64,000 nt of DNA. Source: Patescibacteria group bacterium. GTDB taxonomy: Bacteria; Patescibacteriota; Patescibacteriia; Magasanikbacterales; GWA2-37-8. Both the position numbers and the translations under genes were made by a program. The stretch is from NCBI GenBank assembly GCA_004321885.1, contig SCQK01000007.1, positions 1 to 64,000 on the forward strand. The letters run 5' to 3'. The notes beneath the pieces were generated by a model. That model had not been told where the DNA came from, ran no database searches, and saw nothing but the letters and a program-made list of their open reading frames with translations. Shown one piece after another: positions 21,101 through 46,934 of the stretch (positions within the stretch are counted from its first letter, which is position 1; the number at the start of each line of letters is the position of its first letter).

Positions 21101-24100
21101 CGCCGCATTGGCTAAAAGCCGCGGCGCAGGCCGCGTTAAAATCGGCCTGGGCAAAGCCGCCAAAAGTCGCCTGATTGTCCCAGCACCATTTGCTGGCCAG
21201 TTTAGTGCCATTATGCAAACAACTCGCGTTGCATCCCAGCGCTGATTGCGGATTGGCCGGGTCCGGTGCAATGCCCAAATCGCAATCCTCATCATCGCCC
21301 ACGGTTCTGTTGCCGCAGATGGAAACGTTTATGGCGCCCGGCGGCGGGCTGGCCGACGAGCCTTTTTTGGTGTTATTTTTTGACCGACAGTCCAAATTGC
21401 AGGCAAAAGCCGACTGGGGGTTTGCGGCATTAGACGCAATACCCAAATCACAATCCTCGCCCGCTTCCACTTTGCCGTTGCCGCAGGCCGCGAGGAGCAT
21501 GCCGGCGCCCGCGGCCACGCCACTGCCTTTTTTCACGCAATGGCTGGTGCAAAATTGATTCTTGCCTTGGGTGCCGTAAAAATTTATCTGGGCCACCTTG
21601 TCGTCTGATGAGGCCCATGTCCAGCTGGTCTTCCAAGGATTTACTTTTTGGCCGCTCGGGTTGCATTTGTCCGGCGAGGAATACGCCAGCACATTGTAAA
21701 CCTCGCGCGAAGTAATGGTGGGCGCGATGTACTTGGCCGGCGCCACCTCGGCGCGCGCCACTTCGCATTTGGTTTTTTTGGTGCGGAAGCGCCAGGAAAA
21801 TTCTTTGGTATACGGCTTGCTGAAATTAGTAGCGTCATTGGCCTGGGAAAGGGTACGCAGAGACCACAACAAACGTTGGTCGCTCAAATTGGTGGCGCTG
21901 GCTGAAACAGTCGCCAAGTACAGGGTCTCGGGCTTTAATTCTACCGAGGTGTCTTTGGAATTAGCAACTTTCAAAATCGTGTAACCCCCGGCGCTGTCCA
22001 AAACCACATCCCCAGACGCGCCCACGGACTTCAGCTGTTTGCAATTTTCATCCAGACACTCGTAAAGTTTTACCGAGCCCTTTTCATTGGCGCCGGTCAG
22101 GTTGCGCATGGACATAGAGGTGCTCCAGCGCACAGCCACCTCGGCGTTGGTGCAGGCCTCCAAACAGTTGGGCCAAAAATCAATCGGCTTGGGGTCGCTT
22201 AAATCAATTTTCAAAATGCCATTGCCGCTAAAACTACCCTCGGCGTCCATGGCTCTGGCTATCAGGCTGACTGCGTCAAAAGGATTGGCCAGCCCAACCC
22301 CCACTGTGTTGGTCAAAGCGGAAAAACGCGCCTTTTTTTGCGTGGCGGCTCCGTCAAAAATTTCCGAGTAAGACGTGTCGCCCGAATTCCAGCTCCAATT
22401 AAAAGCGCTGGCGTCCATTAGCACGCATTTTTGCGTGGACAGGCCCGTGGCCGACCAATACTGGGAATTGCCCTTGTTTGTAATGGGCTTTTCCAAAACA
22501 CTGGTGTAATAATCATAGGGGGTGACCAGCACTTTTTTCATTTTGCAATCCGCGTCATCGGTTTTGAAGAAAAAACAATAGGCGCTGTTGGCAATGCCCG
22601 CGCCATCGCAGGGCTTGTCTTTTTGCAAATTTAAAACCGCCGGGCCCACGCCCGCTGAAATGTTGGCAGACAAAACAGCCTGATACCAGGTATTGTTTTT
22701 CCACAAACCGTTGTTGTAGCCGGACGTTGGTTTTAAGTTTACAAAAGAAGTGGCGCCATTGGCAGTCTGCGCGCCGATGGCCGGGGTAAACACGGCCGTG
22801 GCGTTGGTTTGGTCCGCGAGCGGCACGCCAACCGGATTAACGCACAAACCATTTTCCAGGCCCGCGCATTCGCGAAGCACGAAATCAGCCGGGCTAATGG
22901 GATTCATCAGCTTGGAAAACTCCACCGACACCAGGGCCTGACGGCAAACATTATGGTGGTCTCCGGACGCGCCCCCATCCCACGAAATATCAGGCGAAGG
23001 CGAGGGCAAAACAATGCCCGCGTCATCGCATCTTTCTATGACGCGGGGAAACTTGGGAATGTCGCGCGTGCTTATGCGCCAAACATAGCCCGAGGTTAGG
23101 GTCTCGCCGGCGCACAGCTCGGTGGCCGGCTTGCACAGGCCCTTGTCCGCGCCCGTGGCACAGCACTTGTCCGCGCCCGCGCATTTATTTCCGCTTTTCA
23201 CGCAGTCGTAGACATCAAAATTAGCTGGATTGCTCATTTTTTGCTCGGCCGAACGGTAGACCACCACGGGCCCGGTAATGGCGCCCGGGGGCGGCGAGGC
23301 AAAACTGGCGATTTGCGCCTTGCCAGAATTGGCCACGCTCACGCCCGCGGCCGGCACGCGCCCCACCACACTTGTGGACGAAGCCTGGGTTTTCCAAAAA
23401 TACACGCTCGGACTGGCGCCAAAATACTCGCCGGCGATTTTCATCTGCGAAGAAGCCGCGAACGGCACTGGCCCGGCCGTAGGGTCTATATTGCAAATGC
23501 CCGGCGCCGGACGGCCGTCGCCAAGCGTAAAGCCGTAAAAGGGCGCGCCCGCCTCCCCGCTGGCCGATACCACCTGCACCGCGTACTGGCCGTTTAATAG
23601 TTCGCTCGCGTTCGGAAACTTCACGATGATTCTGTCTGTTTTCCAAATATTATTTTTGCATTCTGGCGGAAAATCAAAGTCGCCCAGATTGGCCAGGCCC
23701 GAGCCGTTTAGCTTAAACCAAATTTTTCCCACTTTGTCGCCGAAATTTTTGCCGGTGATGGTAATATATTCCCCTCGCCCACCGTTTTCCGGACTAATGC
23801 CGGAAATCACCGGCGCGCCCTCGCCCATGCCGTCTATTACCGCAAAGCCCACCGAATTGCTTTCCGCTCCTTTGGTGTCTGTTAATTTTACCGGCGCCCA
23901 GCCCTGGCCCAGGCCAGGCACTTTGGCTTTGGCCGCGGTGTCGTTCCAGGCCAAAGGGTCTGCATACGCCGCCAGTTCGCCAAAAGTGATTTTGCTCGCG
24001 GCGCCGTAAGTACTAAAACTCTTGCCCGCGAGCGTTACCTCTTGCCCCACCACTCCGCTCGGCGGAATGGGCGGGCACAAACTGGGGCGTGTTTGCGTTG

Positions 24101-25796
24101 TAATGCTAAAATCCGGCACGCTCGGGCCAAAACTGTCGTTGGTCCGGTCAATAAACTGCCGTGGTGCGCCGTTTATTGTGTTGGTAGCCGTCACTACCAT
24201 CATTGGCCCGCTCACCGCTGTCCTTGGCGCTTCCACTAAAATTTGCGACGAAGACCAGCTGGAATTTAGACTGCCGCAGTTGGCCAAATCGGCTTTTATC
24301 CAGTCGCTCAAAACATCGGGCGAGGGATTGCTTTTGGCCGCCATATAGGCGGCGCCGGGTTTGACGCCAAAATAACTGCCAAAAATAGTAACATAGGAGC
24401 CGGGAGCGCCCGAGCCCGGAGAAACCGAGCGAATCATGGCGCGCTCCACGCACACACCCGTGGTTTGGCCTGATGGAATCTCGCAATAACCGCTGGCGCA
24501 ATCCGCGTCTTTGGCACACTGCCCCCCGGCGCAAGCCCCGCATTCACCCCCGCAGGCCGGCGGCCCTTTTTGTATTTCCCCCGGGTCCAGCACATTGTCA
24601 AAACAATGCTGGGGCCGCAAGTAAACCGGCAGGGTATCGCTGCCGTTTTGACCGGCCCAATCAATATCCAAGGCGTTCAGAGTATGGTTGCCAGCGGCCA
24701 GACCGGCTGTGGGCCAGTCTATTTGCGTGGTGCCGCTCTTTTGACAGCCGGCAAATGTCCGATACCCGACTTCCTGGCCATCGGCTTTGAGCGTCACATT
24801 TTGCACCCCCAAATCATCGGCAAAATTCATGTAAACCGGCACTTTCAATCCCAACTGCAACTGGTCTGGCGCGGGCGGCTGTATATATATGGTAGGCGGC
24901 TTGCGGTCCACCCCGTCGCCGGTGATAAATTCCACGTCTTTACAGCCGTCGCCAAGCTGATACGAGCAGTTCAAAGTTTTTTTGCCGTCGGCCGTGGTAA
25001 CAGCGCTTGGATTTTTGAAGCGCAAAATATAGGCCGTGGATGGCTCCAGACAATCACTGGGCGGGTCGCTGGCTCCGCAGGAACCCTTGGGCACGAACTC
25101 GGCGATTTTGGCGCTGCCGTTGGCCGGTTTCCAGTCGCCCGCCTGCTCGCTGTTGTCGCTTTTTTTGATTAGCACGATGTTGCCCTGGATAGAACTAAGG
25201 CCAAACTCCAAATTAAAAGCAACAGTCGGGTGAACATTGCGCAAGCAAAGCTGTCCCCCGCCCGGCAACTTGGCCACATAAAAAACATCGCCGGGCAAAT
25301 AGCCGCCTGGCCCGCCCCCGCCGCAGGCGGCGCAGCTGCCGCCGCAATCCACGCCGGTTTCGTCCTGGTCCTGCACCCCGTTGTAGCAATACTGGGGATA
25401 ACTGCCCGTGGCCGAAACCAATTTGCTGATGACAAAACTGGTGATGGCGTAAGACGCCAGAATAATGACCAGCCCGATGAGCGCGTTGAAAATAATTTTC
25501 TTGGCCGTGGCTATTTTTTCGTCATTGCCGCCGGCTGTCATCCACGCAAAACCGCCATAGAGCAAAAGTACCAGCGCCACGATGCCCAAAAGCCCCAGGG
25601 CCGTGCGGATAATTTTCGCCACCAGCACCCTGATGTCGGTATCCGGCAGGCCGCTCGCTTTGGCCTGTTCCAGGCCCACGTCAACCGGAGCGGCCGGCTG
25701 GGCAAAAACAAAATCCGAAAAAAAGAAAAGACCGACGGCTAAGAGAAGCGCGAACAGAGAATAAATAAAAATTTTTCTAAAAAATATTTTTTTCAT
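15171..25796 (-). CDS. Giant exported or surface protein (3541 aa) with a VirB2/TrbC-like N-terminal double-TM module, Cys-rich CxxCDxG repeats, a LamG/ConA-like lectin domain and Cys-knot-like repeats
   Basis: Uninterrupted 10.6-kb ORF. A signal peptide MKKIFFRKIFIYSLFALLLAVGLFFFSDFVFAQ is followed by the two-helix module ...ALVLLLYGGFAWMTAGGNDEKIATAKKIIFNALIGLVIILASYAI. Repeats include CGNGKVEAGEDCDLGIASNAANPQSAFACNLDC and a LamG-like stretch WHHICLTYDGTLAKLYADG...IDDVRVYNRALT. The C-terminus is Cys-rich. Confidence 0.8.
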   Translation of the reverse strand: MKKIFFRKIFIYSLFALLLAVGLFFFSDFVFAQPAAPVDVGLEQAKASGLPDTDIRVLVAKIIRTALGLLGIVALVLLLYGGFAWMTAGGNDEKIATAKKIIFNALIGLVIILASYAITSFVISKLVSATGSYPQYCYNGVQDQDETGVDCGGSCAACGGGGPGGYLPGDVFYVAKLPGGGQLCLRNVHPTVAFNLEFGLSSIQGNIVLIKKSDNSEQAGDWKPANGSAKIAEFVPKGSCGASDPPSDCLEPSTAYILRFKNPSAVTTADGKKTLNCSYQLGDGCKDVEFITGDGVDRKPPTIYIQPPAPDQLQLGLKVPVYMNFADDLGVQNVTLKADGQEVGYRTFAGCQKSGTTQIDWPTAGLAAGNHTLNALDIDWAGQNGSDTLPVYLRPQHCFDNVLDPGEIQKGPPACGGECGACAGGQCAKDADCASGYCEIPSGQTTGVCVERAMIRSVSPGSGAPGSYVTIFGSYFGVKPGAAYMAAKSNPSPDVLSDWIKADLANCGSLNSSWSSSQILVEAPRTAVSGPMMVVTATNTINGAPRQFIDRTNDSFGPSVPDFSITTQTRPSLCPPIPPSGVVGQEVTLAGKSFSTYGAASKITFGELAAYADPLAWNDTAAKAKVPGLGQGWAPVKLTDTKGAESNSVGFAVIDGMGEGAPVISGISPENGGRGEYITITGKNFGDKVGKIWFKLNGSGLANLGDFDFPPECKNNIWKTDRIIVKFPNASELLNGQYAVQVVSASGEAGAPFYGFTLGDGRPAPGICNIDPTAGPVPFAASSQMKIAGEYFGASPSVYFWKTQASSTSVVGRVPAAGVSVANSGKAQIASFASPPPGAITGPVVVYRSAEQKMSNPANFDVYDCVKSGNKCAGADKCCATGADKGLCKPATELCAGETLTSGYVWRISTRDIPKFPRVIERCDDAGIVLPSPSPDISWDGGASGDHHNVCRQALVSVEFSKLMNPISPADFVLRECAGLENGLCVNPVGVPLADQTNATAVFTPAIGAQTANGATSFVNLKPTSGYNNGLWKNNTWYQAVLSANISAGVGPAVLNLQKDKPCDGAGIANSAYCFFFKTDDADCKMKKVLVTPYDYYTSVLEKPITNKGNSQYWSATGLSTQKCVLMDASAFNWSWNSGDTSYSEIFDGAATQKKARFSALTNTVGVGLANPFDAVSLIARAMDAEGSFSGNGILKIDLSDPKPIDFWPNCLEACTNAEVAVRWSTSMSMRNLTGANEKGSVKLYECLDENCKQLKSVGASGDVVLDSAGGYTILKVANSKDTSVELKPETLYLATVSASATNLSDQRLLWSLRTLSQANDATNFSKPYTKEFSWRFRTKKTKCEVARAEVAPAKYIAPTITSREVYNVLAYSSPDKCNPSGQKVNPWKTSWTWASSDDKVAQINFYGTQGKNQFCTSHCVKKGSGVAAGAGMLLAACGNGKVEAGEDCDLGIASNAANPQSAFACNLDCRSKNNTKKGSSASPPPGAINVSICGNRTVGDDEDCDLGIAPDPANPQSALGCNASCLHNGTKLASKWCWDNQATFGGFAQADFNAACAAAFSQCGDGIEGPEEDVSCDLGAGKRAEWCNDLCQVSTSTYKGADKSECTPGLEGCGKNGQHLGSSLLYTTPSVCADGKTETGEDDFCESGLSLEHKGLIDPWSLAIGKGLGTAAAPTGGGLPIQSTDISAAAGIAKGIGKFEIPCGYTKDSECPLNADALDKYGVGSDTCCYKRPAIITVYPGALTGIPQTDICPNTVIEAEFDKIIDNATLKNNFIIARGVKATEACPTDDEDVAALMPASTLAAKWCAGSNLAAATVIPSSTAEASRVYARLSAPLATSSPYAIILKNEIRDKTGVSIGYASPAADKKHINWKFSTATKICEVKKVEINPAFAYLSANGQKKTLEAIAKTDKDQIIQPIPNYYAWQYWWAPTSTSVNPYVILQNTTANFNEITAQNRNGEIDVTAAAEITSNKYTAQSGLTATGKSRVVVFLCENPWPATLTLPYEDKYGNNDNIPASAASGDGFFNFSTYYCADSGATGKADDLPYLKPAVQTTAAAIVTPGSLKRFFLASDRGPDAIGIQVFSNPGHLTPRQWYENDKASGGKGFVGQVRDISVNGYGAVTDDYNYYVDALSYANYKREDGTGPSKNLYSNIYLFSLNANASPEMKKVFSQLMENLRFNVNLTNSGFCGTSIASPGSDKTCVSDFDCPGGQVCSAQTDKLKRNYRRLRDLAAIEDVLEGGNKGLVGHYTLDKEDRSGKTIFDKSGYNYKGTAINNPVFSTGVLGQAMNFNGTSDYVDLGNPALFAGGNAARTLCSWGKTGSVSNDYGFIVAYGSPSAGGAFYLGRQGESLLGGGYSDDIKVDKFWTTGVWHHICLTYDGTLAKLYADGALLKSEAKNWNLTKQAARIGAQVGASAGQLWNGQIDDVRVYNRALTNKEVMDLMNSAAGKQSFPKLESGTYLAGQTVSAWPSWSVLGAAAGGALPVDPINKLAQGGSCTDMSQARFCTADTQCAGLNPATCTLHDPVTGWSVADRRFSFACHPNSLAYRYIYSDSGGYTVRSKFENPFDGDIGASISNWTKFVDDFVDKNRFKTSEPTGICLQYNGGGEITGLAQGSCGDGYVTAGKEACDPPGQKVYDKGACTVKTCESDCQWSAAAPVDCATFKNCGNNKLDFGEQCDDGKLNGTWNKCNTTCSGKVPAANSADLANYPGYCGDSVKNSKYEICDPGNAQAKYALKQTDSCAADCQKYGPYCGDNFLQVSDEQCDPPGSETTCVDGVKSVCDAICRYTVGVSCAAAAQTPAPAGSCGDKVVATGEACDEGAAKNGKPCAPSYGKSCSYCSVDCKNTIDVQPKEYCGDSLLNGPEKCETVGKTLYSAEYLAGATQMIKNSNFNGYAVYTCEEESVNTPEPGVYKVGQKTCSENCMKLTPSDDCVKCGLDNANGVEVGGEIINVLDPKSTNPLNGGATNGGFYTYIKTMTGEEKLISGRQWNQSSDIKYSLHEGWGNVPPAPLARIHSDPACKYQMNINSDIAARHRDFPIYSQKESETNPWHYDLILSPVIPKTTEPVTKARPNDVRIVTTWIGDRSFNSGFYGPGGVGKPPVEDNSVTPVKGAEYYINSDTYGIWYHGSGNTLAKSNELAFTVDASKITNGGDMVVTKNQLYSFYVRLPGESIKNFGASAKLKVDVYFPEAGAGSDSHYYRHFDLPDKTYYLSGAQLSANAKASYWQVFNVCVSLNNNVGVDNIRDINKIVTDKMYFDYSVCGATTASGFCKDKAGVECRGAVGECDVVEKCDSASEYCPGDSFKPSGAACIPAGGGSGKCDGYGACVSNAPSGPVCGNGKIEAGEECEGNVPAGQTCESRFGAGFTGNLTCNNCQIDSGQCKAPPPACTDECTPGSGYPKCRPRSGGGDYVVRCVTDADTDKCYEEFLGSSWCEYGCTNGQCVSACVPDCSGKDCGSNGCGGVCGSRGGGCDSGYECNRYGKCVQCQNACNFTGSRCAGKCVETCTWNNGCSVYSSCNPQCSRDFNCVETPDGPRCQ

Positions 25797-25895: not shown

Positions 25896-27926
25896 TCACA
25901 AACTATTTTGTTTCAAATAATCCAAACACGTCGTTTGATTGTTCAAATTGGTCTTCACACTGCCATTACAGCAGAAATCATAATTTTTTATATTGACCAC
26001 GGCGCAACAAGCGGCCGCGTTAGCCTCGTCGCAAGATAGCGACTGTTTAGTGCCAACGTCTGCCTCGGTGTTGGGCCCTTTGCCCGGATAAAAACAATTA
26101 TAGTGCACGTCTTCCACGGCCGAAGGAATGAGCGGATAATAATATTCTTTGATTCCGCTCAAAAACGGGCAGTGAGACATTTCCACGCTGGTGGCATCGG
26201 CGCTGTACGTGGCGCGCGGCACATAGCATAGAGGCACGGGCTGGGCCGGATGCTGGTCTAAGCCGATGTTATAAAGCGACTCGGCGCGCATGCGCTTGCT
26301 GAAAGCCATACTCCATTCCTGGCTGGCGGAAATATTCTGCGCGTCCAGGCCCGGGGTAACGCGATTTAAGTACGGCGCGGTCAAATCAATTTCATCTTTA
26401 ATGGCAAAGCCCCAAAAATAGTTGTCGGGCGTTTCCTGGGTGGGGAAAACCGGCAGGCCGGTGGCCGCGAAGTTCACCGTATTATCGCGATTGCCGTCCA
26501 GGGCATTGCCAGACACATCCATGGCTCCGGAAAAGGGCACTGCTTCAAAAGACGCGGCGCCAATAGCGCGCGCGGCTTTAAGTAAAACACGGTAATTATC
26601 CTGCTTGCAGTTAGCGCCGGTCTTATCGCAAACCGGCAGACAAAAAATAGTGTTGCCGCAGGCGTTTTTGCCGCAGGCCTGGGATGAAGTAAATTCCAAA
26701 GTGCGGTAGCCGTTGGTAAGGGTGAACACGCCCAGGGGCACGGCGCTGTAGCTACTTTTCAAATAAATATTATCGCCTTCCAGCGCGTAATTTTCCGCGT
26801 TGTTTATAAACTTGCCTTGGATGCCAGTGGGGTCCATGGCTTCGCTAAAATTTATTTGAATGACGCTATTTTTGGCTTCGGCCGTGCTGGAGGCCGGAAA
26901 AACATCAGTCACAAAGGGCGGCGACAAGTCCAGCGCATTACCGGTGGTAAATTTCCATTCGTAATAATTATTGCCGTACATTGAAGAATTAAAGGCCGGC
27001 GGATTGCCATTGGGCGGGTCGTCTAATTTAATATCACTGCCCAGCCGCACCGTGTAGGCGATATTTTCCACGCTACTGCCCAAATACCCGCCGCCAACGT
27101 TGTTTAAGTCCGTGAGCGGCTTTATTACCAAAGTATATACCCCGTATACACCGCTGATACTGCTGGCGCTGCCGATAACGGCCGCGGCCGCGATGGTGCT
27201 GCTCGGAGTTTTGATATTGATAAACTTGTCACTTAAAAATCCGCTGGCGGTTTTAACGCGGTCGCAGTCGTTCACCCAGCTAACCATGTTGTCGCGGCAG
27301 TTGCCGAAAATGCCGTCGCCGGTGGTGTCGTCTATAAAGCTCTTGGTCAGCACGGGCCTACGGAAAGTAACGATGATTTTGGTGTTGCGCGGCACATCGG
27401 TCTGGTCGCGGGTGGGATAGTGGTCTTTCACGATTTTGCCGAGCGCGCCCGAACCCCAAAAATTCTGCTCGCCCGGGGCATTGGCCGAGCCGCCCTGGTC
27501 TCCGCCGCCCGCCCCAATGCCGAGCATTTTCATCACGAACAGCACGATGGCGTAAGAAGCCATTATAATAATCAACCCGACAATGGCGTTAATAATCACT
27601 TTTTTGGCCTTGCCGATTTGCTCGTCATTGCCGCCGGCCGTCATCCACAAAAAACCGCCGTATAAGATTAAAACAACGAGCACCATGCCGATAAGCGACA
27701 AAGCGATTCTAATGATACGCGCGGCAATCACCCGGATGTCGTCCGCGGGCAGGCCCAGGGGCTTTTCAATCACATCCAGGCCCTGGCCCACGGTTTGGCC
27801 GATGTCGCCGGTTTGCGCCAAAGCATTGCCCACGCCAAAAAAAACAGCGCCAAAAAACGCCATAACTACAACAAAATTTATAGCTTTTTTCGCGCTGTCA
27901 TTTTTCCCCTTTTTCCATTGTAGCAT
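25896..27926 (-). CDS. Exported protein (676 aa) with the same VirB2/TrbC-like N-terminal module as the giant protein, a beta-rich extracellular region and a Cys-rich C-terminus
   Basis: The N-terminus ...DIRVIAARIIRIALSLIGMVLVVLILYGGFLWMTAGGNDEQIGKAKKVIINAIVGLIIIMASYAI is paralogous to the N-terminus of the 15171..25796 protein. Confidence 0.75.
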   Translation of the reverse strand: MLQWKKGKNDSAKKAINFVVVMAFFGAVFFGVGNALAQTGDIGQTVGQGLDVIEKPLGLPADDIRVIAARIIRIALSLIGMVLVVLILYGGFLWMTAGGNDEQIGKAKKVIINAIVGLIIIMASYAIVLFVMKMLGIGAGGGDQGGSANAPGEQNFWGSGALGKIVKDHYPTRDQTDVPRNTKIIVTFRRPVLTKSFIDDTTGDGIFGNCRDNMVSWVNDCDRVKTASGFLSDKFINIKTPSSTIAAAAVIGSASSISGVYGVYTLVIKPLTDLNNVGGGYLGSSVENIAYTVRLGSDIKLDDPPNGNPPAFNSSMYGNNYYEWKFTTGNALDLSPPFVTDVFPASSTAEAKNSVIQINFSEAMDPTGIQGKFINNAENYALEGDNIYLKSSYSAVPLGVFTLTNGYRTLEFTSSQACGKNACGNTIFCLPVCDKTGANCKQDNYRVLLKAARAIGAASFEAVPFSGAMDVSGNALDGNRDNTVNFAATGLPVFPTQETPDNYFWGFAIKDEIDLTAPYLNRVTPGLDAQNISASQEWSMAFSKRMRAESLYNIGLDQHPAQPVPLCYVPRATYSADATSVEMSHCPFLSGIKEYYYPLIPSAVEDVHYNCFYPGKGPNTEADVGTKQSLSCDEANAAACCAVVNIKNYDFCCNGSVKTNLNNQTTCLDYLKQNSL

Positions 27927-28343: not shown

Positions 28344-29744
28344 TCACATTTTTCCCAATTTTTTCTTCAAGATATTATCAATCTTGCGCTGGTCCACGAT
28401 TTCCTGGGTGCCCGATTCCATGTCGCGAATCACCGCGGTGTTGTCTTGCACCTCTTTCTGGCCGATAATCAGGGCATAAGGCACCTGCAGGCTGTTAGCC
28501 GATTCCAGCTGGCTTTTGAGCGAATTTTTGGATAAATTAAAACTGACTTTCAGGCCTGATTTGCGTAGAACGTTTAGAAGGCGCAAAGCGCTCTGGCGGG
28601 CCGAATCGCCGAGCTGGGCCAGATACAAGTCGTATTTGGGGGCCGGCGGACGCAGGCCGTTGGCTTCGTTGAAAGCGCGGATGGCCGCCACCATGCGCTC
28701 AATGCCGATGGAAAATCCGGCCGCCGGCGTAGGCTTGCCGCCCATTTCCTCCACCAGCAAATCATAGCGGCCGCCGCCGCCCAGGGCGCTTTGGGCGCCG
28801 GCCTCGCCGGTAAGCGAGGGATAAATTTCAAAAACCGTGCGGGTATAATAGTCCAGCCCGCGCACTAATGTGTGGCGCAAGGTATAGGGCACGGTTAGTT
28901 CATCCAGATATTCCAGCACTTTCATAAAGTGGCTCTTGGATTCCTCGCCCAGCCAGTCGGTGATTTGCGGGGCTTCGTCTTTTACGGGCTGGCATTTTTC
29001 GTTTTTGCAATCCAGCAGGCGCAGCGGGTTTTTGTGCAGACGCGCCTTGCAGTCGTCGCACAGATAGCCGCGCTTGGCGCGGTAATAATCCACCAACGCG
29101 GTTTTGTAATTTTTTCTTTCCTCGGGCGTGCCGATGGAATTAAGGTGAATTTCCACGGGCACGCCGGCGTCTTGACAAAAATTATACGCGATTAGTATGA
29201 GTTCGGCGTCCACGGCCGGGCCGCCGTCGCCCAGGGTTTCATAGCCTACCTGATAAAACTGCCTATAGCGCCCGGCCTGCGGGCGATCATAGCGAAACAT
29301 GGGGCCCCAATACCACAGCTTCGTGGGCAGGGGCATGTTCCACATCCCGTGCATGATATAGGCGCGCGCGATGGCGGCGGTATTTTCCGGGCGCAGGCAG
29401 ATTTTGTTGCCATCGCGGTCTTCAAAAACATACATTTCTTTGTCCACAATATCAGTGCCGCGGCCGATGGAGCGAATAAACAGCCCCGCCTCTTCCATTA
29501 TCGGCGTTTCTATCCGGCTAAACTGAAAAAAATCAGCCAGCTCCAGGGCCGACTGATAAAGCGGCTTGCGGTATTTTTCTTCGCGCGGCAAAACATCGTG
29601 CATGCCGCGAAGCAGATTAAAAGTGCGCTTTGGCTTTTCCGCGCTTTCCGCCGCCGGCCTGGGCGCGCGCGGTTTGGCGCGGCGGATAAATTTTTTTAAC
29701 GGGTGTTTTTTTGTCTTTTGTTTTTTTGGCATATTGCTTGTCAT
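28344..29744 (-). CDS. hisS: Histidine--tRNA ligase
   Basis: 466-aa class II aaRS. LRGMHDVLP, RPENTA and GGGRYD motifs are present. Confidence 0.9.
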   Translation of the reverse strand: MTSNMPKKQKTKKHPLKKFIRRAKPRAPRPAAESAEKPKRTFNLLRGMHDVLPREEKYRKPLYQSALELADFFQFSRIETPIMEEAGLFIRSIGRGTDIVDKEMYVFEDRDGNKICLRPENTAAIARAYIMHGMWNMPLPTKLWYWGPMFRYDRPQAGRYRQFYQVGYETLGDGGPAVDAELILIAYNFCQDAGVPVEIHLNSIGTPEERKNYKTALVDYYRAKRGYLCDDCKARLHKNPLRLLDCKNEKCQPVKDEAPQITDWLGEESKSHFMKVLEYLDELTVPYTLRHTLVRGLDYYTRTVFEIYPSLTGEAGAQSALGGGGRYDLLVEEMGGKPTPAAGFSIGIERMVAAIRAFNEANGLRPPAPKYDLYLAQLGDSARQSALRLLNVLRKSGLKVSFNLSKNSLKSQLESANSLQVPYALIIGQKEVQDNTAVIRDMESGTQEIVDQRKIDNILKKKLGKM

Positions 29745-29770
29745 TCCCCCGACTAAGTCGGGGGAATCCG
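29740..29770. repeat. Family A palindromic element gtcattcccccgactaagtcgggggaatcc overlapping the hisS start codon
   Basis: The GGAATGAC end of the element supplies an ATG in the reverse complement. Confidence 0.7.
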
Positions 29771-30383: not shown

Positions 30384-30388
30384 ACCCG

Positions 30389-30462
30389 TGGGCGATTGAG
30401 GAATCGAACCTCAGACCTCGTCATTATCAGTGACGCGCTCTAACCATCTGAGCTAATCGCCC
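30389..30462 (-). tRNA. tRNA-Ile (anticodon GAU)
   Basis: The reverse complement gggcgattagctcagatggttagagcgcgtcactgataatgacgaggtctgaggttcgattcctcaatcgccca folds as a cloverleaf with anticodon loop ctGATaa. Confidence 0.85.
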
Positions 30463-30582
30463 GGTGATTTTTCCATTTTACATTATTATTACTAAAATTT
30501 CAAGGTTTGCTTTTGGGAAAGACGCGAAAGCCACGACTTCGCGTCTGTTTCCTCCTTCCCCCTTGTTATGCACGGCCGTTGT

Positions 30583-31131
30583 TCACGGCCACGGCCCGAA
30601 GCGGATTCTCGTGGGAACCGACTCCATGGGCACGGCCGCTCGCTGTGGCGGTTTCATGGGCTCTGGCTGAAAAATGCCAACCGCCTGCACTAACAAGCCG
30701 CGCACCACGTCTTCGTCCCCTATCCGGCAGACGAAGAATAGCTTCTGCCCCCACCTCTTGGTGGTGGCATAGCCGACCGTGTACCCGCGCCCTCCGGCGA
30801 GCGGAAAGGTGCGACATTGAGAGATAAGATGAATACACTTGACCAGCGCGAGGGCGCAGGCCATTTGTATCACATCACTCTCGTCTGGTGGACACAGATA
30901 GTCCACCACCTGCCCGCCGACGGTCTGGATTTCCGCTACCCTCTCCATTCTATTTCTCCTTTCTACCCTGTGGGATGGCCGGTAGGCGGCGTGATTTTGT
31001 TGCCGCGAGTTCTCCGATGGGCTTTCCGGAAAATCTCCGGCGACGAAGCCGCTTCTCTGACTCTGATAAAGCAGGCGGTTTCCCCCAACAGCTCCACCGG
31101 CGCCCTGTCTCTCTTGTCGCAGACGAACCAC
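30583..31131 (-). CDS. Hypothetical protein in the GC-rich islet (possibly the 3' part of a frameshifted gene)
   Basis: 182-aa ORF rich in G and C at codon third positions. It overlaps the ORF at 30963..31406 in another frame. No recognisable motifs. Confidence 0.35.
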   Translation of the reverse strand: MVRLRQERQGAGGAVGGNRLLYQSQRSGFVAGDFPESPSENSRQQNHAAYRPSHRVERRNRMERVAEIQTVGGQVVDYLCPPDESDVIQMACALALVKCIHLISQCRTFPLAGGRGYTVGYATTKRWGQKLFFVCRIGDEDVVRGLLVQAVGIFQPEPMKPPQRAAVPMESVPTRIRFGPWP

Positions 31132-31406
31132 ACCCCGGCGCCCTCTGCGGTGTTGGCGAAGAAATAATGCCAGCCATCTCCGTGAGGAATTGTGAGAACC
31201 CTTTCAAAGCCGGGCGGCCACCAGCGCCAGCGCCTTGTCCACTGTGCCGGCAACACATCAACCACAAACGACGTGAGAATCTCTCTCACCAGATCGTGAT
31301 TGTGCGCTTCACAATCAAACTCCAGGGCCTTGCCATTTATCCACAACAGGCTCATTTTTTTCTCCTGCCCCCTCAAAGAGGCGGTGAAGTGTCTTAATAA
31401 GGTCAA
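30963..31406 (-). CDS. Hypothetical protein in the GC-rich islet
   Basis: 147-aa ORF (MSLLWINGKALEFDCEAHNHDLVREILTSF...). Its composition is unlike that of the flanking genes. Confidence 0.35.
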   Translation of the reverse strand: MTLLRHFTASLRGQEKKMSLLWINGKALEFDCEAHNHDLVREILTSFVVDVLPAQWTRRWRWWPPGFERVLTIPHGDGWHYFFANTAEGAGVWFVCDKRDRAPVELLGETACFIRVREAASSPEIFRKAHRRTRGNKITPPTGHPTG

Positions 31407-31420
31407 TGAACGAACTCACG

Positions 31421-31494
31421 TGGGCAATAGAGGAGTTGAACCTCTGACCTCGGCAATGTCAATGCCGCGCTCTAACCAACTGAGCTAATTGCCC
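31421..31494 (-). tRNA. tRNA-Val (anticodon GAC)
   Basis: The reverse complement gggcaattagctcagttggttagagcgcggcattgacattgccgaggtcagaggttcaactcctctattgccca has anticodon loop ttGACat. Confidence 0.85.
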
Positions 31495-31580
31495 AAATTT
31501 TAACAAAGACACATCGCCAGTATAGCAAACAAAAAACAAAAAAACAAGAGTGGGGACCCTCTTGCCAAAAGACAAACTTG

Positions 31581-32069
31581 TTAAATTTTGGCCAAGTTAT
31601 CCAGTATCTCCACCGCGGCCAGACCGGCTTCGTAGCCTTTATTAAAGTCGTCATCGCCGGCGCGCGCCTTGGCCAGCTCCAAATTCGGGGTGGTAAGCAC
31701 GGCGAAAAGCACCGGCAGATTGAATTTTAACGCCACGTTCACGAGACCCATAGAGCAGGCGCTGGAAATATATTCGTCGTGCTTGGTCTCGCCTTTGATA
31801 ACCGCGCCCAGGCAAATGACAGCGTCGTATTTTTTTACCCGCCCGCCATGCGGGTTGGCCGCGGCTAATTTTTGCGCCGCCAAGGGCAACTCAAAAGACC
31901 CGGGCACTTCCAAAATTTTAATATTCTTATCTGAAACCGCGCACTCTTTCAGCGCGCGCAAACAGCCGGCCAGCAGGCCGCTGGTGATTTCCCCGTTAAA
32001 ATTCGCCTTGGCAATGGCGATTTTGTACTTGGCGCCGTATAGTTTTTTCCTTATTTTTTTGTTTCGCAT
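31581..32069 (-). CDS. ribH: 6,7-dimethyl-8-ribityllumazine synthase
   Basis: KIAIAKANFNGEITSGLLAGCLRAL and VPGSFELP are typical of RibH. Confidence 0.85.
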   Translation of the reverse strand: MRNKKIRKKLYGAKYKIAIAKANFNGEITSGLLAGCLRALKECAVSDKNIKILEVPGSFELPLAAQKLAAANPHGGRVKKYDAVICLGAVIKGETKHDEYISSACSMGLVNVALKFNLPVLFAVLTTPNLELAKARAGDDDFNKGYEAGLAAVEILDNLAKI

Positions 32070-32632
32070 AATTTTTCTAAATATCTGGCTATCACGTCCA
32101 CCTCAATATTCACCCTATCCCGGACTTTTATATTTTTCAAATTCGTTATCTCGCGCGTGTGGCTAATGAGCGCCACGCGAAACCGCTCGCCCATGTCCTC
32201 GGCAATAGTCAAACTGATGCCGTTTATCGCCACCGTGCCCTTGCGCGCCAAGTAAACGCGCAATTCCGGCGGCGAACTTATCACCAACTCGGCGTACTCG
32301 CCGACTGTTTTAATTTCTTCCACCGCGCCCACGCCGTCCACATGCCCCAGCACAAAATGCCCGTCCAGCCGCTCGCCGACTTTTAGCGACTTTTCCAGAT
32401 TTACGTCATCTCCAACTTTCAGCGCGGAAAAATTGGTCACGCGAAAGGTCTCGGGCATGATTTCTATTTGAAAACTGTCGCCGTCTAACGCGATTACTGT
32501 CGTACACACCCCGTTTACCGCGATGCTGTCGCCGATTTTTATATCCGCCAAAAAATTCTTCACGGTAATCGTAAAGATATGGTTGGAAATTTCTTTTACT
32601 ACGCCGACTGTTTCAATAATGCCGGTAAACAT
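32051..32632 (-). CDS. ribE: Riboflavin synthase alpha subunit
   Basis: MFTGIIETVG N-terminus, with a duplicated lumazine-binding fold. The start is taken at MFTG, since the upstream in-frame extension is the palindromic element. Confidence 0.85.
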   Translation of the reverse strand: MFTGIIETVGVVKEISNHIFTITVKNFLADIKIGDSIAVNGVCTTVIALDGDSFQIEIMPETFRVTNFSALKVGDDVNLEKSLKVGERLDGHFVLGHVDGVGAVEEIKTVGEYAELVISSPPELRVYLARKGTVAINGISLTIAEDMGERFRVALISHTREITNLKNIKVRDRVNIEVDVIARYLEKLCETKK

Positions 32633-32638
32633 ACAATT

Positions 32639-32668
32639 GTCATTCCCCCGACTTAGTCGGGGGAATCC
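32639..32668. repeat. Family A palindromic element gtcattcccccgacttagtcgggggaatcc immediately upstream of ribE
   Basis: A perfect inverted repeat lying between the ATPase gene stop and the ribE start. Confidence 0.7.
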
Positions 32669-32677
32669 ATCAACCAT

Positions 32678-34264
32678 TCAAAACAACGTTCGCTCGGCCC
32701 GCTGTTTGCTAAGCTCGGACAAAAACCGGCCCACAAATTCCTGGGGACTGCGGCCAAGCGCCACGAAATCGTATAGCAGAAGCGCCACCACCATGGCCGC
32801 GTGAAGCTCTTCCCAGCGCTGTTCTCGCGCGCGCGTCCAGGCCGGATGGCTGGTGTTGATATAGGCCGTGTCTTCAAAAATTCGGCCGAGCTGGTCTTTA
32901 TCAGCGCCGGTAAACGGCTCCAGCGCCAGCTTCAGGCCGGGCTTGCTTACCCGCTTTTGCCGCTCGCCATCGGGGTCGGATTTTAGGACTGAATTTTTTT
33001 CCCGCTCGCTATTTTTTTGTGCCGCATCGCCCAAACCCAAACGCAGCGTTTCTTCTTTTCCTTTTTTTTTCGCCTTTGAAGCATCAGCCCCAGCCGCCGC
33101 TTTTACCGTTAAGCGCCTCACACCGATGACGTCTTCCAGCTCCGGAAAATCACCGGCCAGATTTCCCAAAACATCTTCAATGCGCCTGGCTAGGGGTTTC
33201 ATGTTCGCCGGCGCTTTCACCGCGGCCTCGGTCGCGCTGTCTTCACCAAACATTTTAAGGATAGGTAAAATCGCTCCCTGAATCGCTTTACGGAAGCGAT
33301 AGTATTTTTTCAAACTGGCCGCGTCGGTCAAAAAACCGTCCTTGTTGGTGGTAAGCAACGTGGACAAAGCCGGAATTTCCACCAGCCCCACCAACTGATA
33401 GGCTGACTTGGGAGATACGCCCGCCCATTCCCAGCCGGTTTTAATCACTTTGCCGTAGGTGGAAACGGCCAGACCCGAAGCCAGGGAAAGCGGCGCCGGC
33501 TTGCCGCCGGTGATTTTATCCAGCCAGCCCGCCTCGCGGTCTTTGAAGGCGATAAATCCATACCCGATTGGTCTTCTTTGTTTGGGCAGGCGCACTTCAA
33601 ACCATTTGTCATTATGGCGGCCGATGTCATCGGGCAAAACCACGCGCCGGCCGTTCACGAAAAACTCCACGCCTTTTTTGTAAACGTGCCGCAAAATTTT
33701 TTCATTCATCCCATGGTTGAGCAGGGGATAAAAATGTTTGATGATGGCGCGTTCTATGAACCCTTCGCCCAAAATCTTTTCCGTCGGCGAACGCCCGCCG
33801 GCCGGACGAGCAGGTAAAACAATGCTCACGCTGGAGCCGCGCGGGTGCGGAATAGTATCGCTGGAGGGAACAAACTTCCACGGCGCGCGAAACAGACCCG
33901 ACAGCCGCCACTCCGAGGCGCAGCGGCCGCCATGGGGACCGCGCGTTTCCGTCACCACGCTGTCGGCTAAAATCAAAGACAGTTTGGCCCCCACGCCGGC
34001 AAAGCCGATGCCTTCGCCGCGCACTTTGTCCGAAGAAGCGATGTTGTGATATTCGCGAAACTGCGGCCGGCTCATGCCGCGCCCGTTGTCCACGCAGGTA
34101 ACGCGCGCCTGCCCCAGGTCGGTAAAAAAATCCACCCGCGTGGCGCCCGAATCCAGGGCGTTGGCCACTAACTCGGTGATAATCACTTCTTCTATCGGCG
34201 AACTATAGCTGTCGCGGATGTCTTCCAAGAGGTGCTTCAAATTTATCCGTGTTTCATTGGACAT
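32678..34264 (-). CDS. GHKL-superfamily ATPase (HATPase_c_3 / MORC- or Hsp90-like ATP-binding protein)
   Basis: 528 aa. N-box ELVANALDSGAT, G1 box DNGRGM and G2 IGFAGVGAKLS are present. The C-terminal half has no recognisable domain. Confidence 0.6.
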   Translation of the reverse strand: MSNETRINLKHLLEDIRDSYSSPIEEVIITELVANALDSGATRVDFFTDLGQARVTCVDNGRGMSRPQFREYHNIASSDKVRGEGIGFAGVGAKLSLILADSVVTETRGPHGGRCASEWRLSGLFRAPWKFVPSSDTIPHPRGSSVSIVLPARPAGGRSPTEKILGEGFIERAIIKHFYPLLNHGMNEKILRHVYKKGVEFFVNGRRVVLPDDIGRHNDKWFEVRLPKQRRPIGYGFIAFKDREAGWLDKITGGKPAPLSLASGLAVSTYGKVIKTGWEWAGVSPKSAYQLVGLVEIPALSTLLTTNKDGFLTDAASLKKYYRFRKAIQGAILPILKMFGEDSATEAAVKAPANMKPLARRIEDVLGNLAGDFPELEDVIGVRRLTVKAAAGADASKAKKKGKEETLRLGLGDAAQKNSEREKNSVLKSDPDGERQKRVSKPGLKLALEPFTGADKDQLGRIFEDTAYINTSHPAWTRAREQRWEELHAAMVVALLLYDFVALGRSPQEFVGRFLSELSKQRAERTLF

Positions 34265-34312: not shown

Positions 34313-35116
34313 TTAGAAACTCTGCGCCAATACCTTCCGTACTTCATCAACCAACTCCGAGGCGCTGTAATTAAATCCGAACTTTTTCCAGAGCGCGTCG
34401 CCGGCCGCGCCATTTGCGTAAAGCCCGGCGCCGGCGGCGAGTAGCGGCTCGTTTTTTGCCAATAGTCCCACGATGAGTCCGGAGAGCACATCGCCAGTTC
34501 CGCCTTTGGTCATTCCTTGGTTGCCGATAACATTACACCAAACCTTGCCATTTTGGCAAACATAGCTTTGCCAGCCTTTTAGTACGATGACGCCGGGATA
34601 TTTTTTGGAAATCAGCCGCGCGTTTTGGGCGGTCGCTTTTTTCTTAAACATTGCCTGAAATTCTCCGGCATGCGGGGCAAGCACGCAATTTTTGTGCAGC
34701 AATTTCAAATCCACCACGCGTAAAGCGCCGGCGTCCAGCACAATTTTCTTTTCCGGAAAAGCGCGCAAAATTCCATTGACCAATTTTTTTGTTTTCTCGT
34801 TTGGCATCAGCCCGGGCCCCAGCAGTATCGCATCACTGTTCCACACTGTCATCCCGACTGAGTCGGGATCCCTTTCTTCAACACGAATAAACTCCGCCAA
34901 CCCCTCGCGCAATTTTTTTATCAACGCAAAATTTTCTTTACTCGCATACACATACACCAAATCAACTAACTTGGCCGCCATCGTCGCGCACAAAATTAGA
35001 GAGCCGTGATATTTTTCCGAGCCGGCGGCAATCAAAACAATCCCGTTCTCGCCCTTGCGGCTCTTTCGCGGCGGCTGGTACAATTTTTTCAACCAGTTTT
35101 TATCTATCTTAATCAT
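34313..35116 (-). CDS. nnr: ADP-dependent NAD(P)H-hydrate dehydratase (YjeF C-terminal domain)
   Basis: 267 aa. GTGDVLSGLIVGLLAKN is a YjeF_C signature. Confidence 0.75.
   Translation of the reverse strand: MIKIDKNWLKKLYQPPRKSRKGENGIVLIAAGSEKYHGSLILCATMAAKLVDLVYVYASKENFALIKKLREGLAEFIRVEERDPDSVGMTVWNSDAILLGPGLMPNEKTKKLVNGILRAFPEKKIVLDAGALRVVDLKLLHKNCVLAPHAGEFQAMFKKKATAQNARLISKKYPGVIVLKGWQSYVCQNGKVWCNVIGNQGMTKGGTGDVLSGLIVGLLAKNEPLLAAGAGLYANGAAGDALWKKFGFNYSASELVDEVRKVLAQSF
34848..34871. repeat. Family A element gtcatcccgactgagtcgggatcc, in frame inside nnr
   Basis: It encodes RDPDSVGMTV within the CDS. Confidence 0.65.
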
Positions 35117-36307: not shown

Positions 36308-36447
36308 AAACTGCTTGTTTTGTGTGAATGAAACACCACGGGCTTACGCCCGGGGAACTGCGTTAGAATATTAGCCAATCTTGGCTAACTTTCCCTAAAC
36401 AAGAGCACTTTGAAAAGGGAAAAGTACTCTTGAAAAGCATTTTGATT

Positions 36448-36474
36448 GTCATTCTTGCCCGTGAGCAGGAATCC
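36448..36474. repeat. Family A element gtcattcttgcccgtgagcaggaatcc
   Basis: Located in the leader upstream of the GC-rich phosphatase gene. Confidence 0.6.
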
Positions 36475-36552
36475 AGTCAGGATGCTTTTCAGGAGGATAG
36501 GAACCCCGATTAGTCCGGCAAGGAGCCGGACACCACTGACAAGGAGAGAGAA

Positions 36553-37149
36553 GTGAAGACAATCATCGTTGTGAGGCATCCCGAGAAGGACGGAGACAAG
36601 ATCACGGCACTCGGTGCCATGCAGGCCTTCGCGACCGCGCTGGCGCTCGGCGCCATGTTCCCGAAGATTACCCAGATCCTGTGGTCGGGCGCGAACCGCG
36701 CCTGGCAGGCAGCGATGGTGACCTTGGCCGCGCTCGGTGGCGATGGCCGCTGGCTCAAAGAGAGCCGCGGCTTCCACTTCGAACCGACATTCACGAACGT
36801 CTACGGCAAGGACGCCCCCGCGGCGTTCAAGGCCGAGACGGCCGCCATCAAGGAGCGACTCGGCAAGTCCGCCCTCACCGTCGCCGACGCATTGGAACAC
36901 AGCGAGTACGCGCGCCAGGGCCGAGTGGTTATGACGGACACACTCTTCAAGCTCGCCAGCACGATGAAGGACGACGACGTGGTGCTGGCCGTCAGTCACT
37001 CGCCGTGGTTGGAGCTCGCCGCACTCGACCCGGCGACCATGCCCTACGGCATCGGCGAGGCCGAAGCTGTGGCCTACCACATAGAGGACAGCAAAATCCT
37101 GACCATAGAGCGGGTGTTGTCCTCGCTGGCCGGCAAGGCCAACTGCTGA
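36553..37149 (+). CDS. Histidine phosphatase superfamily (phosphoglycerate mutase / SixA-like) protein; GC-rich, probably foreign
   Basis: GTG start preceded by the RBS aaggagag. IIVVRHPEKDGD and LAVSHSPWLE motifs are present. Its GC content and GC3 are clearly above those of neighbouring genes (judged by eye). Confidence 0.6.
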   Translation: MKTIIVVRHPEKDGDKITALGAMQAFATALALGAMFPKITQILWSGANRAWQAAMVTLAALGGDGRWLKESRGFHFEPTFTNVYGKDAPAAFKAETAAIKERLGKSALTVADALEHSEYARQGRVVMTDTLFKLASTMKDDDVVLAVSHSPWLELAALDPATMPYGIGEAEAVAYHIEDSKILTIERVLSSLAGKANC

Positions 37150-37268
37150 CAGCGGACGTCTCCCTCCCTCGCCGGCCCCGCCCGGCGGCCCATTTCCCAA
37201 AACTCAAAGTGCAACGCGCCCACGGTTTCCCGCGGGCGCTTTGTTTTTTTAAAAAATTATCTATCAAT

Positions 37269-37721
37269 TCAGCTTAATCCCAAAGCCGGCTTCATTTTGC
37301 TTACGTCCACTTCCAATTTTTCAACACGCTCTTCCAGTTTCGTGGTCGCGTGGACGGTTAAAGTAAGCTCTTGGTCTTTCTTTTCCATCAGACCAACAAT
37401 CTTATCCAGTGAATTTGATAACTTGCCAATGTCATTCTTGGTCGCCATTGTCTCTTCCATACGTTCCAACCGTTCCGTATGGTCAACAACCGTGCGCGCG
37501 ATTAAATCAAGCCGCTCCTCATGATCCGCGAGTTTTTTATCAATCTTATCAAACCTCTCATCGTGCTCTTTGAATTTGGCATCATGCTCAATGAATTTTT
37601 GGTTAATTTTTCCAAAATTTCCATCATGCTCAACGAGTTTCTGATTCACTTTTTCAAGATTGCCTCCGAGCTCGTTGAGTTTTTGCATTATAGCGTCGGT
37701 CATATGGTCGTATTGTATCAT
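37269..37721 (-). CDS. Coiled-coil protein with roughly 11-residue repeats (KxNQKxxEHDxxF)
   Basis: 150 aa: LEKVNQKLVEHDGNFGKINQKFIEHDAKFKEHDERFDKIDKKLADHEERLDL. Confidence 0.5.
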   Translation of the reverse strand: MIQYDHMTDAIMQKLNELGGNLEKVNQKLVEHDGNFGKINQKFIEHDAKFKEHDERFDKIDKKLADHEERLDLIARTVVDHTERLERMEETMATKNDIGKLSNSLDKIVGLMEKKDQELTLTVHATTKLEERVEKLEVDVSKMKPALGLS

Positions 37722-41287: not shown

Positions 41288-41699
41288 ACGACTTTACCCT
41301 AGTCACTGACCCTGCCTTAATTCCCCGAAGGAAACTTTGGGCATTGCCAGCTCCCGTGGTATGACGGGCGGTGAGTACAAGACCCGAGAACGTATTCAAC
41401 GCGCCGTGGCTGATGCGCGTTTACTAGCGATTCCGACTTCATGAAGGCGAGTTGCAGCCTTCAATCTGAACTGGGGCCGGTTTTGATGGGATTGGCTCCG
41501 CCTCGCGGCTTAGCGACCCATTGTACCGGCCATTGTAGCATGTGTGTAGCCCTGGACGTAAGAGCCATGCTGATTTGACGTCGTCCACCCCTTCCTCCCG
41601 GCCCGCTGTTCGCTTGCTTTCGCAAACGCCCAAAGGGCCGGGCGGTCTCGCGTGAATATTTAACACGCGACGTGGGTTGCGCTCGTTTCCCAACTTAAT

Positions 41700-41992: not shown

Positions 41993-42118
41993 GCCGCGAG
42001 ATGTTCACGGCACGAGCTGACGGCAACCATGCAGCACCTATCTAGCACCCTCGAAGGCGGCGGCCGTTTCCGGCAGCTTGCAGCTAGTAGTTGAGCCCAG
42101 GTAAGGTTCCTCGTTTGT

Positions 42119-42163
<45 letters not shown>

Positions 42164-42299
42164 TATTCCTTTGAGTTTTAACCTTGCGGCCGTACTCCCC
42201 AGGCGGCGCACTTAACGCGTTAGCTTTTTTGAACGGCACTGACAGGGTCGATACTGCCAATACCTAGTGCGCATAGTTTAGGGCGTGGACTACCAGGGT

Positions 42300-46922: not shown

Positions 46923-46934
46923 AAATAAAGATAT

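Follow-up and report, generated by a model that had tools for sequence, protein, structure and literature searches.

In the window, as the whole 64,000-nucleotide stretch of patescibacterial DNA analyzed here is called, two minus-strand tRNA genes, for valine and isoleucine, enclose a segment of 957 bp that harbors two small genes, referred to below as ORF A and ORF B (Table 1). The two tRNAs had already been recognized in a first-pass annotation of the sequence, and ARAGORN and Rfam agree with both assignments. Each of the ORFs is equipped for its own translation. The start codon of ORF A is preceded at a distance of 6 nt by the ribosome-binding site AGGAG (31366-31362), which is located in the leader that follows tRNA-Val, and ORF B has an AGGAG (30960-30956) 7 nt 5' of its ATG, within the short spacer that separates the two genes. 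The same two proteins are found, as hypothetical proteins, in the NCBI annotation of this Patescibacteria group metagenome-assembled genome (MAG).

Table 1. The tRNA-Val to tRNA-Ile interval and its flanking signals, given as positions in the window
Feature	Position	Strand	Description	Basis
Putative tRNA-Val promoter	31519..31547	-	TTGTTT - 17 nt - TATACT	Read from sequence; candidate
tRNA-Val(GAC)	31420-31494	-	CCA not encoded	ARAGORN; Rfam tRNA, 72.3 bits
Leader between tRNA-Val and ORF A	31356..31419	-	64 nt	Read from sequence
ORF A	30963..31355	-	130 aa; NCBI EPN28_01630; ATG 31355, TAG 30963	Translation; identical to P0001
Spacer between ORF A and ORF B	30949..30962	-	14 nt	Read from sequence
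ORF B	30583..30948	-	121 aa; NCBI EPN28_01625; ATG 30948, TGA 30583	Translation; identical to P0002
Hairpin 3' of ORF B	30521..30545	-	GACGCGAA, 9-nt loop, TTCGCGTC, then TTTCCC	Sequence; MFE structure
Promoter-like site	30475..30503	-	TTGAAA - 17 nt - TAAAAT	Promoter scan, 10/12 matches
tRNA-Ile(GAU)	30388-30462	-		ARAGORN; Rfam tRNA, 71.9 bits

In the first-pass annotation, the segment had been read as a pair of overlapping minus-strand ORFs of 147 and 182 aa in different frames. These ORFs exist mechanically, but they overlap because each had been extended to the furthest upstream TTG or GTG. When the ATG codons of Table 1 are used, both of which follow a ribosome-binding site and recur in a second locus (L082, described below), the overlap disappears and the genes lie 14 nt apart. 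Translation of the part added upstream of ORF B yields a low-complexity sequence rich in R, G and Q. Both ORFs display the order GC3 > GC1 > GC2, a coding signature, and the antisense ORFs are not kept intact when the sequence is compared with L082. The segment between the tRNAs is very probably an intact two-gene operon that encodes two lineage-specific soluble proteins.

The segment had also been described as a GC-rich islet with many G or C residues in third codon positions, and both descriptions hold in part. The GC content of the inter-tRNA region is 0.557, compared to a window mean of 0.511 (sd 0.039 for stretches of the same size), which places it at the 88th percentile, and equal or higher values are reached at 18 other places in the window. 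The core has a GC content of 0.58-0.61 versus 0.44-0.50 in the immediate flanks. The local contrast is real, yet the region is not an outlier and appears to lie within the normal variation of the genome. GC3 is 0.68 and 0.72 in the two ORFs versus 0.586 +/- 0.083 for 45 ORFs of the window, 1.1-1.6 sd above the mean and below the maximum of 0.75. Much of the excess GC falls at codon positions 1 and 2 and is thus a matter of amino-acid composition.

A second locus, selection and the encoded proteins

When 1.84 billion cluster representatives were searched in full by HMMER with a profile of A and B, a single true homolog was identified, P0003, a protein of 131 aa that is 60% identical to ORF A over 106 aa. 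It is encoded on L082, a 1475-nt contig from a metagenome of another sample and sequencing run (SRR22388194), where the order is partial nnrD, which encodes NAD(P)H-hydrate dehydratase, then tRNA-Val(GAC), A' and B'. The contig stops within B', whose product shares 71% identity with ORF B over 100 aa. At the DNA level, a stretch of 776 nt, which runs from the post-tRNA leader into ORF B, has 70% identity between the window and L082, and the leader itself is partly kept, in the elements GAGTTCGTTCrTTGAC and ACCGCCTC. The start codons are the same, the ATG of A among them. As in the window, A' and B' occupy different frames and are separated by a stop, here with a spacer of 1 nt, and neither genome has internal stops.

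The pair of loci also allows an estimate of selection. By the Nei-Gojobori method, codons 1-95 of ORF A give a dN of 0.285, a dS of 1.00 and a dN/dS of 0.29, and 100 codons of ORF B give a dN of 0.215, a dS of 1.13 and a dN/dS of 0.19, values that represent one pairwise comparison between two loci with dS near saturation. The low ratios, together with frames that are intact in L082 up to the contig end, indicate that ORF A and ORF B are two functional protein genes under purifying selection, and the earlier description of the ORFs as decaying is not upheld.

Among about 15 billion proteins, the family of the two proteins is so rare that its known loci number two, both in related uncultured bacteria. 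When 5.8 billion proteins were searched by word index, the query proteins alone came back, and a four-sequence profile used in the same way added only P0003. Scans of JGI metagenomes and IMG/VR gave no relatives of the cassette, as the two-gene segment is called from here on, and tblastn against GenBank phages and PLSDB plasmids gave no match to it. Paralogs were sought in the rest of the window and in 80 related loci, and none were found.

Each protein consists of a core of around 95 aa, acidic or neutral with a pI of 5.4-6.5, that is followed by a basic, hydrophilic and poorly conserved tail. In ORF A, pI and charge distinguish an acidic core of about 95 aa from a basic, non-conserved C-terminal tail, the last 35 residues not being conserved in L082. 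Neither protein has a transmembrane segment. Searches of Pfam, NCBIfam, PHROG and PADLOC with A and B gave no match, and neither did sequence searches of the PDB with single sequences and profiles. The two proteins share the motif G-x-x-L-x-F-x-C-(5)-D-x-V-x-x-L, which is found once or twice in each. Their likeness to one another is associated with a BLASTP E value of 0.002, a shuffle p of about 0.01 and a global identity of 25%; hhalign gives an E value of 0.012 and a probability of 3.5% over 31 columns, with a best match that is non-colinear. Paralogy of A and B is thus suggestive but weak.

AlphaFold2, run on two-sequence alignments, returns strand-strand-helix units with an unreliable pLDDT of 45-47, and a Foldseek comparison of these models with the PDB gave no match at E<=0.001. 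The top Foldseek matches, Pur-alpha (E 0.06) and RnlA (E 0.16), have a TM of <=0.32 and are meaningless at this pLDDT.

Membership of the ankyrin repeat family was also considered and rejected. The profile search with A and B returned three giant ankyrin proteins with E values of 2e-19 to 2e-7, but the underlying scores accumulate across as many as 21 near-identical repeats, at 4-10 bits per repeat, and they drop to 0-7 bits or -0.8 bits once true homologs are included in the profile. The Pfam Ank models give no match at E<=1. In some respects, the motif of about 25 aa in A and B, G-x-x-L-x-F-x-C-x-x-G-x-x-D-x-V-x-x-LL, does resemble the ankyrin consensus G-x-T-x-L-H-x-A-x-x-x-G-x-x-x-x-V-x-x-LL. 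The models, at their low confidence, give beta strand for its first half, and the copies in ORF B are around 55 residues apart (G12 and G67), where ankyrin repeats, as helix-turn-helix units of 33 residues, would give 33 or 66. The cores of A and B may be built of strand and helix units that have the motif in common. A low-confidence best guess is that A and B form a cytoplasmic hetero-oligomeric pair that is possibly nucleic-acid-binding, the latter property being suggested by the basic character of the tails and by the setting in a tRNA operon.

The coding interpretation has to be weighed against the idea that the region, or its ORF B half, is a structured RNA, either instead of or besides coding, and this is unlikely. 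The ORF B half folds with a z of -4.4 in the sense and -3.4 in the antisense direction relative to dinucleotide shuffles, and the whole inter-tRNA region with a z of -4.6 to -5.8, compared to about -0.4 to -1.2 for ORF A. The 174 tiles of the window have a mean z of -1.1 (sd 1.7), and only 5% of them, mostly rRNA, reach -4.4, which places the signal in the top 5%. B' in L082 is stable too (z -2.8), and in both homologs none of 200 synonymous permutations folds as well as the native codon order, with a z of -3.3 for ORF B and -3.7 for L082. Compensatory changes are seen in 5 of 68 consensus pairs, a count from two sequences that is too small to establish covariation.

Against this, the purifying selection at the protein level and the conserved starts mark the segment as coding. 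The antisense signal was judged equal or stronger, the housekeeping gene ribE, one of four control genes in the permutation test, reaches a z of -3.0, and the z of the whole region is inflated by the mixing of AT-rich flanks with a GC-rich core. An Rfam 15 scan of 30300-31600 matches the two tRNAs, all other scores being far under the gathering scores, and yields no match to the cassette even at E<=10. A purely non-coding RNA is ruled out by the dN/dS values and the absent Rfam match. As an observation in its own right, the mRNA structure of ORF B may be under selection, and this does not amount to evidence for a separate RNA gene.

Insertion into a tRNA spacer and its origin

The history of the cassette becomes apparent from its neighborhood in related genomes. 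With HisRS as probe, 80 loci were fetched from GTDB species representatives, the closest of which have a HisRS that is 65-73% identical and carry the labels Magasanikbacteria, Parcubacteria or Patescibacteria. Among the first 26 loci, 17 have tRNA-Val(GAC) and tRNA-Ile(GAU) as a pair upstream of lepB-hisS, with either tRNA first (Val-Ile or Ile-Val), and in 16 of these 17 the two are only 6-160 nt apart, which identifies the cassette as a lineage-specific insertion. The first-pass annotation had named the presence of this sequence in related genomes as grounds against its own reading; the segment is present in the closest relative, where it lies beside tRNA-Val in L082, and missing from the more distant ones.

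The point of insertion can be placed with some precision. The Val-Ile spacers of five relatives (L002, L008, L010, L011 and L022) carry TTGATT-17-TATTNT, which is positionally equivalent to the promoter-like site between ORF B and tRNA-Ile in the window. This equivalence places a cassette of about 0.9 kb between the 3' end of tRNA-Val and the native tRNA-Ile promoter. The insertion into the short tRNA-Val/tRNA-Ile spacer took place in a common ancestor of this Magasanikbacteria-like organism and at least one close relative, that of L082, of which the tRNA-Val side alone is covered since the contig ends inside B'. Purifying selection has preserved the operon from then on.

Other lineages have gained different genes in the same neighborhood. 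In L004, the same place is occupied by another insert of 1731 nt, which encodes a 423-aa coiled-coil protein and a 91-aa protein. Elsewhere, unrelated lineage-specific ORFs are located between the tRNA pair and lepB, such as the paralogous proteins of 168 and 169 aa in L002. The variety of this lineage-specific cargo, seen in L004, L002, L009 and L008, indicates that the tRNA-Val/tRNA-Ile-lepB neighborhood is a recurrent gene-gain site.

Such a setting invites the thought that a module of two genes with a selfish or defensive role, for instance a toxin-antitoxin or abortive-infection pair of a new type, has landed in a variable, tRNA-linked region, where addiction or pressure from phages maintains it. 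The genes are small and co-directional (130 and 121 aa) and lie 1-14 nt apart, their distribution is extremely narrow, the cargo near the tRNA pair differs among lineages, and a HATPase_c_3 protein is encoded 1.2 kb upstream. However, none of the searches of PADLOC, Pfam, NCBIfam, PHROG and PDB sequences brought up a toxin, antitoxin or defense domain, and two proteins that are weakly alike do not resemble a toxin and its antidote. No promoter or operator of the cassette's own was detected, no mobility gene or att repeat was found, and the two genomes have the cassette at one and the same site, diverged to about the extent of a housekeeping gene. Such a module is quite improbable.

A horizontally acquired remnant at a tRNA gene, as had been proposed in the first-pass annotation, is a reading of which one part stands, in that the cassette is an insertion relative to 16 of 17 relatives, and the other, a horizontal origin, is not supported, at least as a recent event. 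Searches with the 3' end of tRNA-Val (22-mer and 15-mer, <=3 mismatches) matched the tRNAs themselves and nothing else, and a repeat search of the region found no att-like direct repeat, so the repeats of tRNA 3' ends that would mark attachment sites are not found. The cassette itself consists of ORF A and ORF B alone, neither of which matches any family, and a Pfam scan of ten flanking genes (25.9-37.7 kb) found no recombinase domain. These genes include hisS, lepB, ribH, ribE, the HATPase_c_3 protein, nnrD and a PEP-utilising enzyme; eight have housekeeping, cell-surface or ATPase domains, and the two others (36385-37200 and 37269-37721) have no Pfam match.

Divergence and composition bear on the same question. 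The nnrD gene of the window (34313-35116) is located 3 kb upstream of tRNA-Val and is 73.5% identical to the nnrD fragment of L082, compared to 60-71% amino-acid identity for the cassette proteins. As the divergence of the cassette is around that of housekeeping nnrD, it fits one ancestral gain that was followed by vertical descent. GC3 is raised in both genomes, at 0.68 and 0.72 in the window and 0.73 and 0.76 in L082, versus 0.58 for nnrD in both. Simple vertical inheritance is no explanation for this shared elevation, and its presence at a dS of around 1 counts against a recent import that has merely not ameliorated. A recent horizontal origin is not supported by the repeats, the recombinase scan, the composition or the divergence. 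The ultimate source of the cassette could be an unsampled donor, by transfer, or it could have originated locally.

The fuller form of this proposal, in which the segment is one horizontally acquired gene that has been frameshifted and is decaying at a tRNA integration hot spot, is very improbable. In its favor are the overlap of the maximal ORFs in different frames, the lack of the segment in most relatives and first searches that gave no homologs. It is contradicted by the ribosome-binding site and ATG of each ORF, by the low-complexity R/G/Q nature of the ORF B extension, by dN/dS values of 0.19-0.29, by the same layout of two ORFs in two frames with a stop between them in L082, and by the fact that no fused single-ORF homolog is found in the 1.84 billion cluster representatives. 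A programmed frameshift between A and B was likewise rejected, as each has its own start and ribosome-binding site, the spacer is 14 nt in one genome and 1 nt in the other, and there is no shared slippery site.

The weakest alternative, a metagenome misassembly in which a foreign fragment was joined through the conserved tRNA sequences, is scarcely credible: a Logan contig (L001, 1022 nt) does break inside both tRNAs, meaning that the assembly graph branches there, and the GC of the segment differs from that of its immediate flanks, but such branching is to be expected where a community holds many related genomes, the source sample was assembled twice independently, as the NCBI MAG contig and by Logan, with concordant results, and misassembly is excluded because L082, from another sample, physically ties the cassette and tRNA-Val to a host gene, nnrD.

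Proposed transcription of the gene pair and comparison with known systems

With the cassette taken as an intact pair of protein genes, its expression can be modeled from the signals in Table 1. The putative tRNA-Val promoter overlaps the T-tract of the ribH terminator. It scores below the threshold of the consensus scan, and the same hexamers with the same spacing are found upstream of tRNA-Val in L082. A promoter scan of the leader between tRNA-Val and ORF A detected no promoter-like site. Since this leader shows no consensus promoter, both ORFs most likely depend on read-through transcription that starts at the predicted tRNA-Val promoter. Cleavage at the 3' end of the CCA-less tRNA-Val would then set free a bicistronic mRNA, from which ORF A and ORF B would each be translated from their own AGGAG site.

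The transcript that spans tRNA-Val, A and B would terminate at the hairpin 3' of ORF B. This hairpin is GC-rich and was missed by the terminator scan on account of its loop length and short T-run, the T-tract being poor, and it is probably a weak terminator or a 3' stabilizer. Beyond it, the promoter-like site appears to be the retained native spacer promoter for tRNA-Ile-lepB-hisS, and these genes would continue to be driven by that original promoter.

A more ambitious functional proposal is that A and B, as an undescribed family of a small patescibacterial clade, act on tRNA, RNA processing or translation, with their expression hard-wired into the tRNA operon and with the conserved and unusually stable fold of the ORF B mRNA serving as a functional RNA element that, for example, controls the processing or stability of the co-transcript. 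This proposal must be considered very doubtful.

The main value of the analysis lies in a correction, through which an apparently decaying foreign remnant becomes an intact and constrained pair of orphan genes. The cassette represents a clean, dated gene gain inside a conserved tRNA-tRNA spacer of a reduced CPR genome. It touches no long-standing open question and is a fairly ordinary lineage-specific insertion. If ORF A and ORF B are expressed on the tRNA-Val transcript, they would provide a convenient case for the study of mixed tRNA-mRNA operons in Patescibacteria.

In several respects, the cassette mirrors the tRNA-associated islands. Like these, it directly abuts the 3' end of a tRNA (it starts at 31419), at a site whose equivalent is empty in 16 of 17 relatives, and it carries genes without other homologs in a neighborhood where other lineages hold varied cargo. 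In contrast to such islands, it is not bordered by a direct copy of the tRNA 3' sequence, its ten scanned flanking genes yielded no recombinase, it is only 0.9 kb in length with a composition that appears to lie within the host range, and it is apparently inherited vertically at one fixed site.

Protein genes are known within tRNA operons, an example being tufB of E. coli in the thrU-tyrU-glyT-thrT-tufB operon. ORF A and ORF B likewise follow a tRNA gene of the same orientation and have no detectable promoter of their own, an arrangement by which their expression would be coupled to the transcription and processing of the tRNA. However, co-transcription is in this case a prediction, and the genes are orphans from two known genomes only, rather than genes for a translation factor.

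Finally, the proteins can be compared with the orphan families of the CPR/Patescibacteria. Like the members of these families, they are small, belong to no detectable family and are annotated as hypothetical in the source MAG. What distinguishes the present pair is that its coding nature and constraint have been demonstrated by means of a second locus, and that its insertion site has been resolved.

The tRNA-Ile and tRNA-Val genes and their neighbors

The tRNA-Ile(GAU) and tRNA-Val(GAC) genes (30387-30462 and 31419-31494) are themselves alike, with 84% identity over 76 nt, and their order varies among relatives, being Val-Ile in some and Ile-Val in others. Related genomes, represented here by loci fetched with HisRS as the probe, harbor differing lineage-specific ORFs inside or beside the same tRNA pair (L002, L004, L008 and L009 in the table). 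The genes upstream of tRNA-Val also vary. In L082 (1-640), a metagenome contig from a close relative, tRNA-Val directly follows nnrD, whereas in the window nnrD is separated from tRNA-Val by three genes (31581-34264): that for a 528-aa HATPase_c_3 protein, ribE and ribH. The three genes are a second gain/loss difference at the same tRNA. Genes for riboflavin synthesis are unusual in Patescibacteria.

Starts of lepB and hisS

On the other side of the pair, the annotated ATG of lepB (30383) is found just 4 nt past the 3' end of tRNA-Ile (30388), and hence there is no space for a ribosome-binding site. Either the lepB mRNA is effectively leaderless once the 3' end of the tRNA has been processed, or the true start lies further downstream. 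The junction between lepB and hisS harbors a perfect 12-nt palindrome, ATTCCCCCGACT/AGTCGGGGGAAT (29743-29767), which overlaps the first ATG of hisS. Termination or attenuation is a possible role for this palindrome; alternatively, translation of hisS may begin at the downstream ATG.

Strong folds, rRNA introns and large ORFs elsewhere in the window

Features around the tRNA pair in related genomes and elsewhere in the window
Feature	Position	Strand	Remarks
423-aa coiled-coil protein and 91-aa protein	L004 7284-9014		between the tRNAs
Two paralogous Cys-containing proteins, 168 and 169 aa	L002 3482-4780		between tRNA-Ile and lepB
Short relative of the L002 168/169-aa Cys-containing proteins	L008 1896-2415		
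207-aa ORF	L009 525-1433		
3541-aa giant ORF	window 15171-25796		T4SS_pilin, Ig-like, TIG and Laminin_G_3 domains
676-aa ORF	window 25896-27926		beside the 3541-aa ORF; T4SS_pilin and Big_5 domains
16S rRNA gene and adjoining group I intron region	window 40528-44098		
Group I intron match	window 40528-41297		adjoins and slightly overlaps 3' end of 16S rRNA gene
LAGLIDADG_3 ORF	window 40552-41223		within group I intron match
LAGLIDADG_2 ORF	window 42336-43097		inside 16S rRNA gene
clpP	window 51869-52459	+	
VanW/PG_binding_4 gene	window 52821-54773	-	

When folding stability was compared with dinucleotide shuffles, the strongest z-score of the window (-8.5) belonged to tile 52705-53070, where several long hairpins of the terminator type are clustered between clpP and the VanW/PG_binding_4 gene, which converge on each other. 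No credible match to this tile was found in Rfam. Among non-rRNA tiles on the minus strand, 13909-14274, 50509-50874 and 46849-47214 have z-scores of -4.6 to -5.4.

The 16S rRNA gene extends over 2861 nt in the window, versus 1533 nt for the model. Such intron-rich rRNA is typical of CPR bacteria. The products of the 3541-aa and 676-aa ORFs look like the large surface proteins that are typical of CPR episymbionts.
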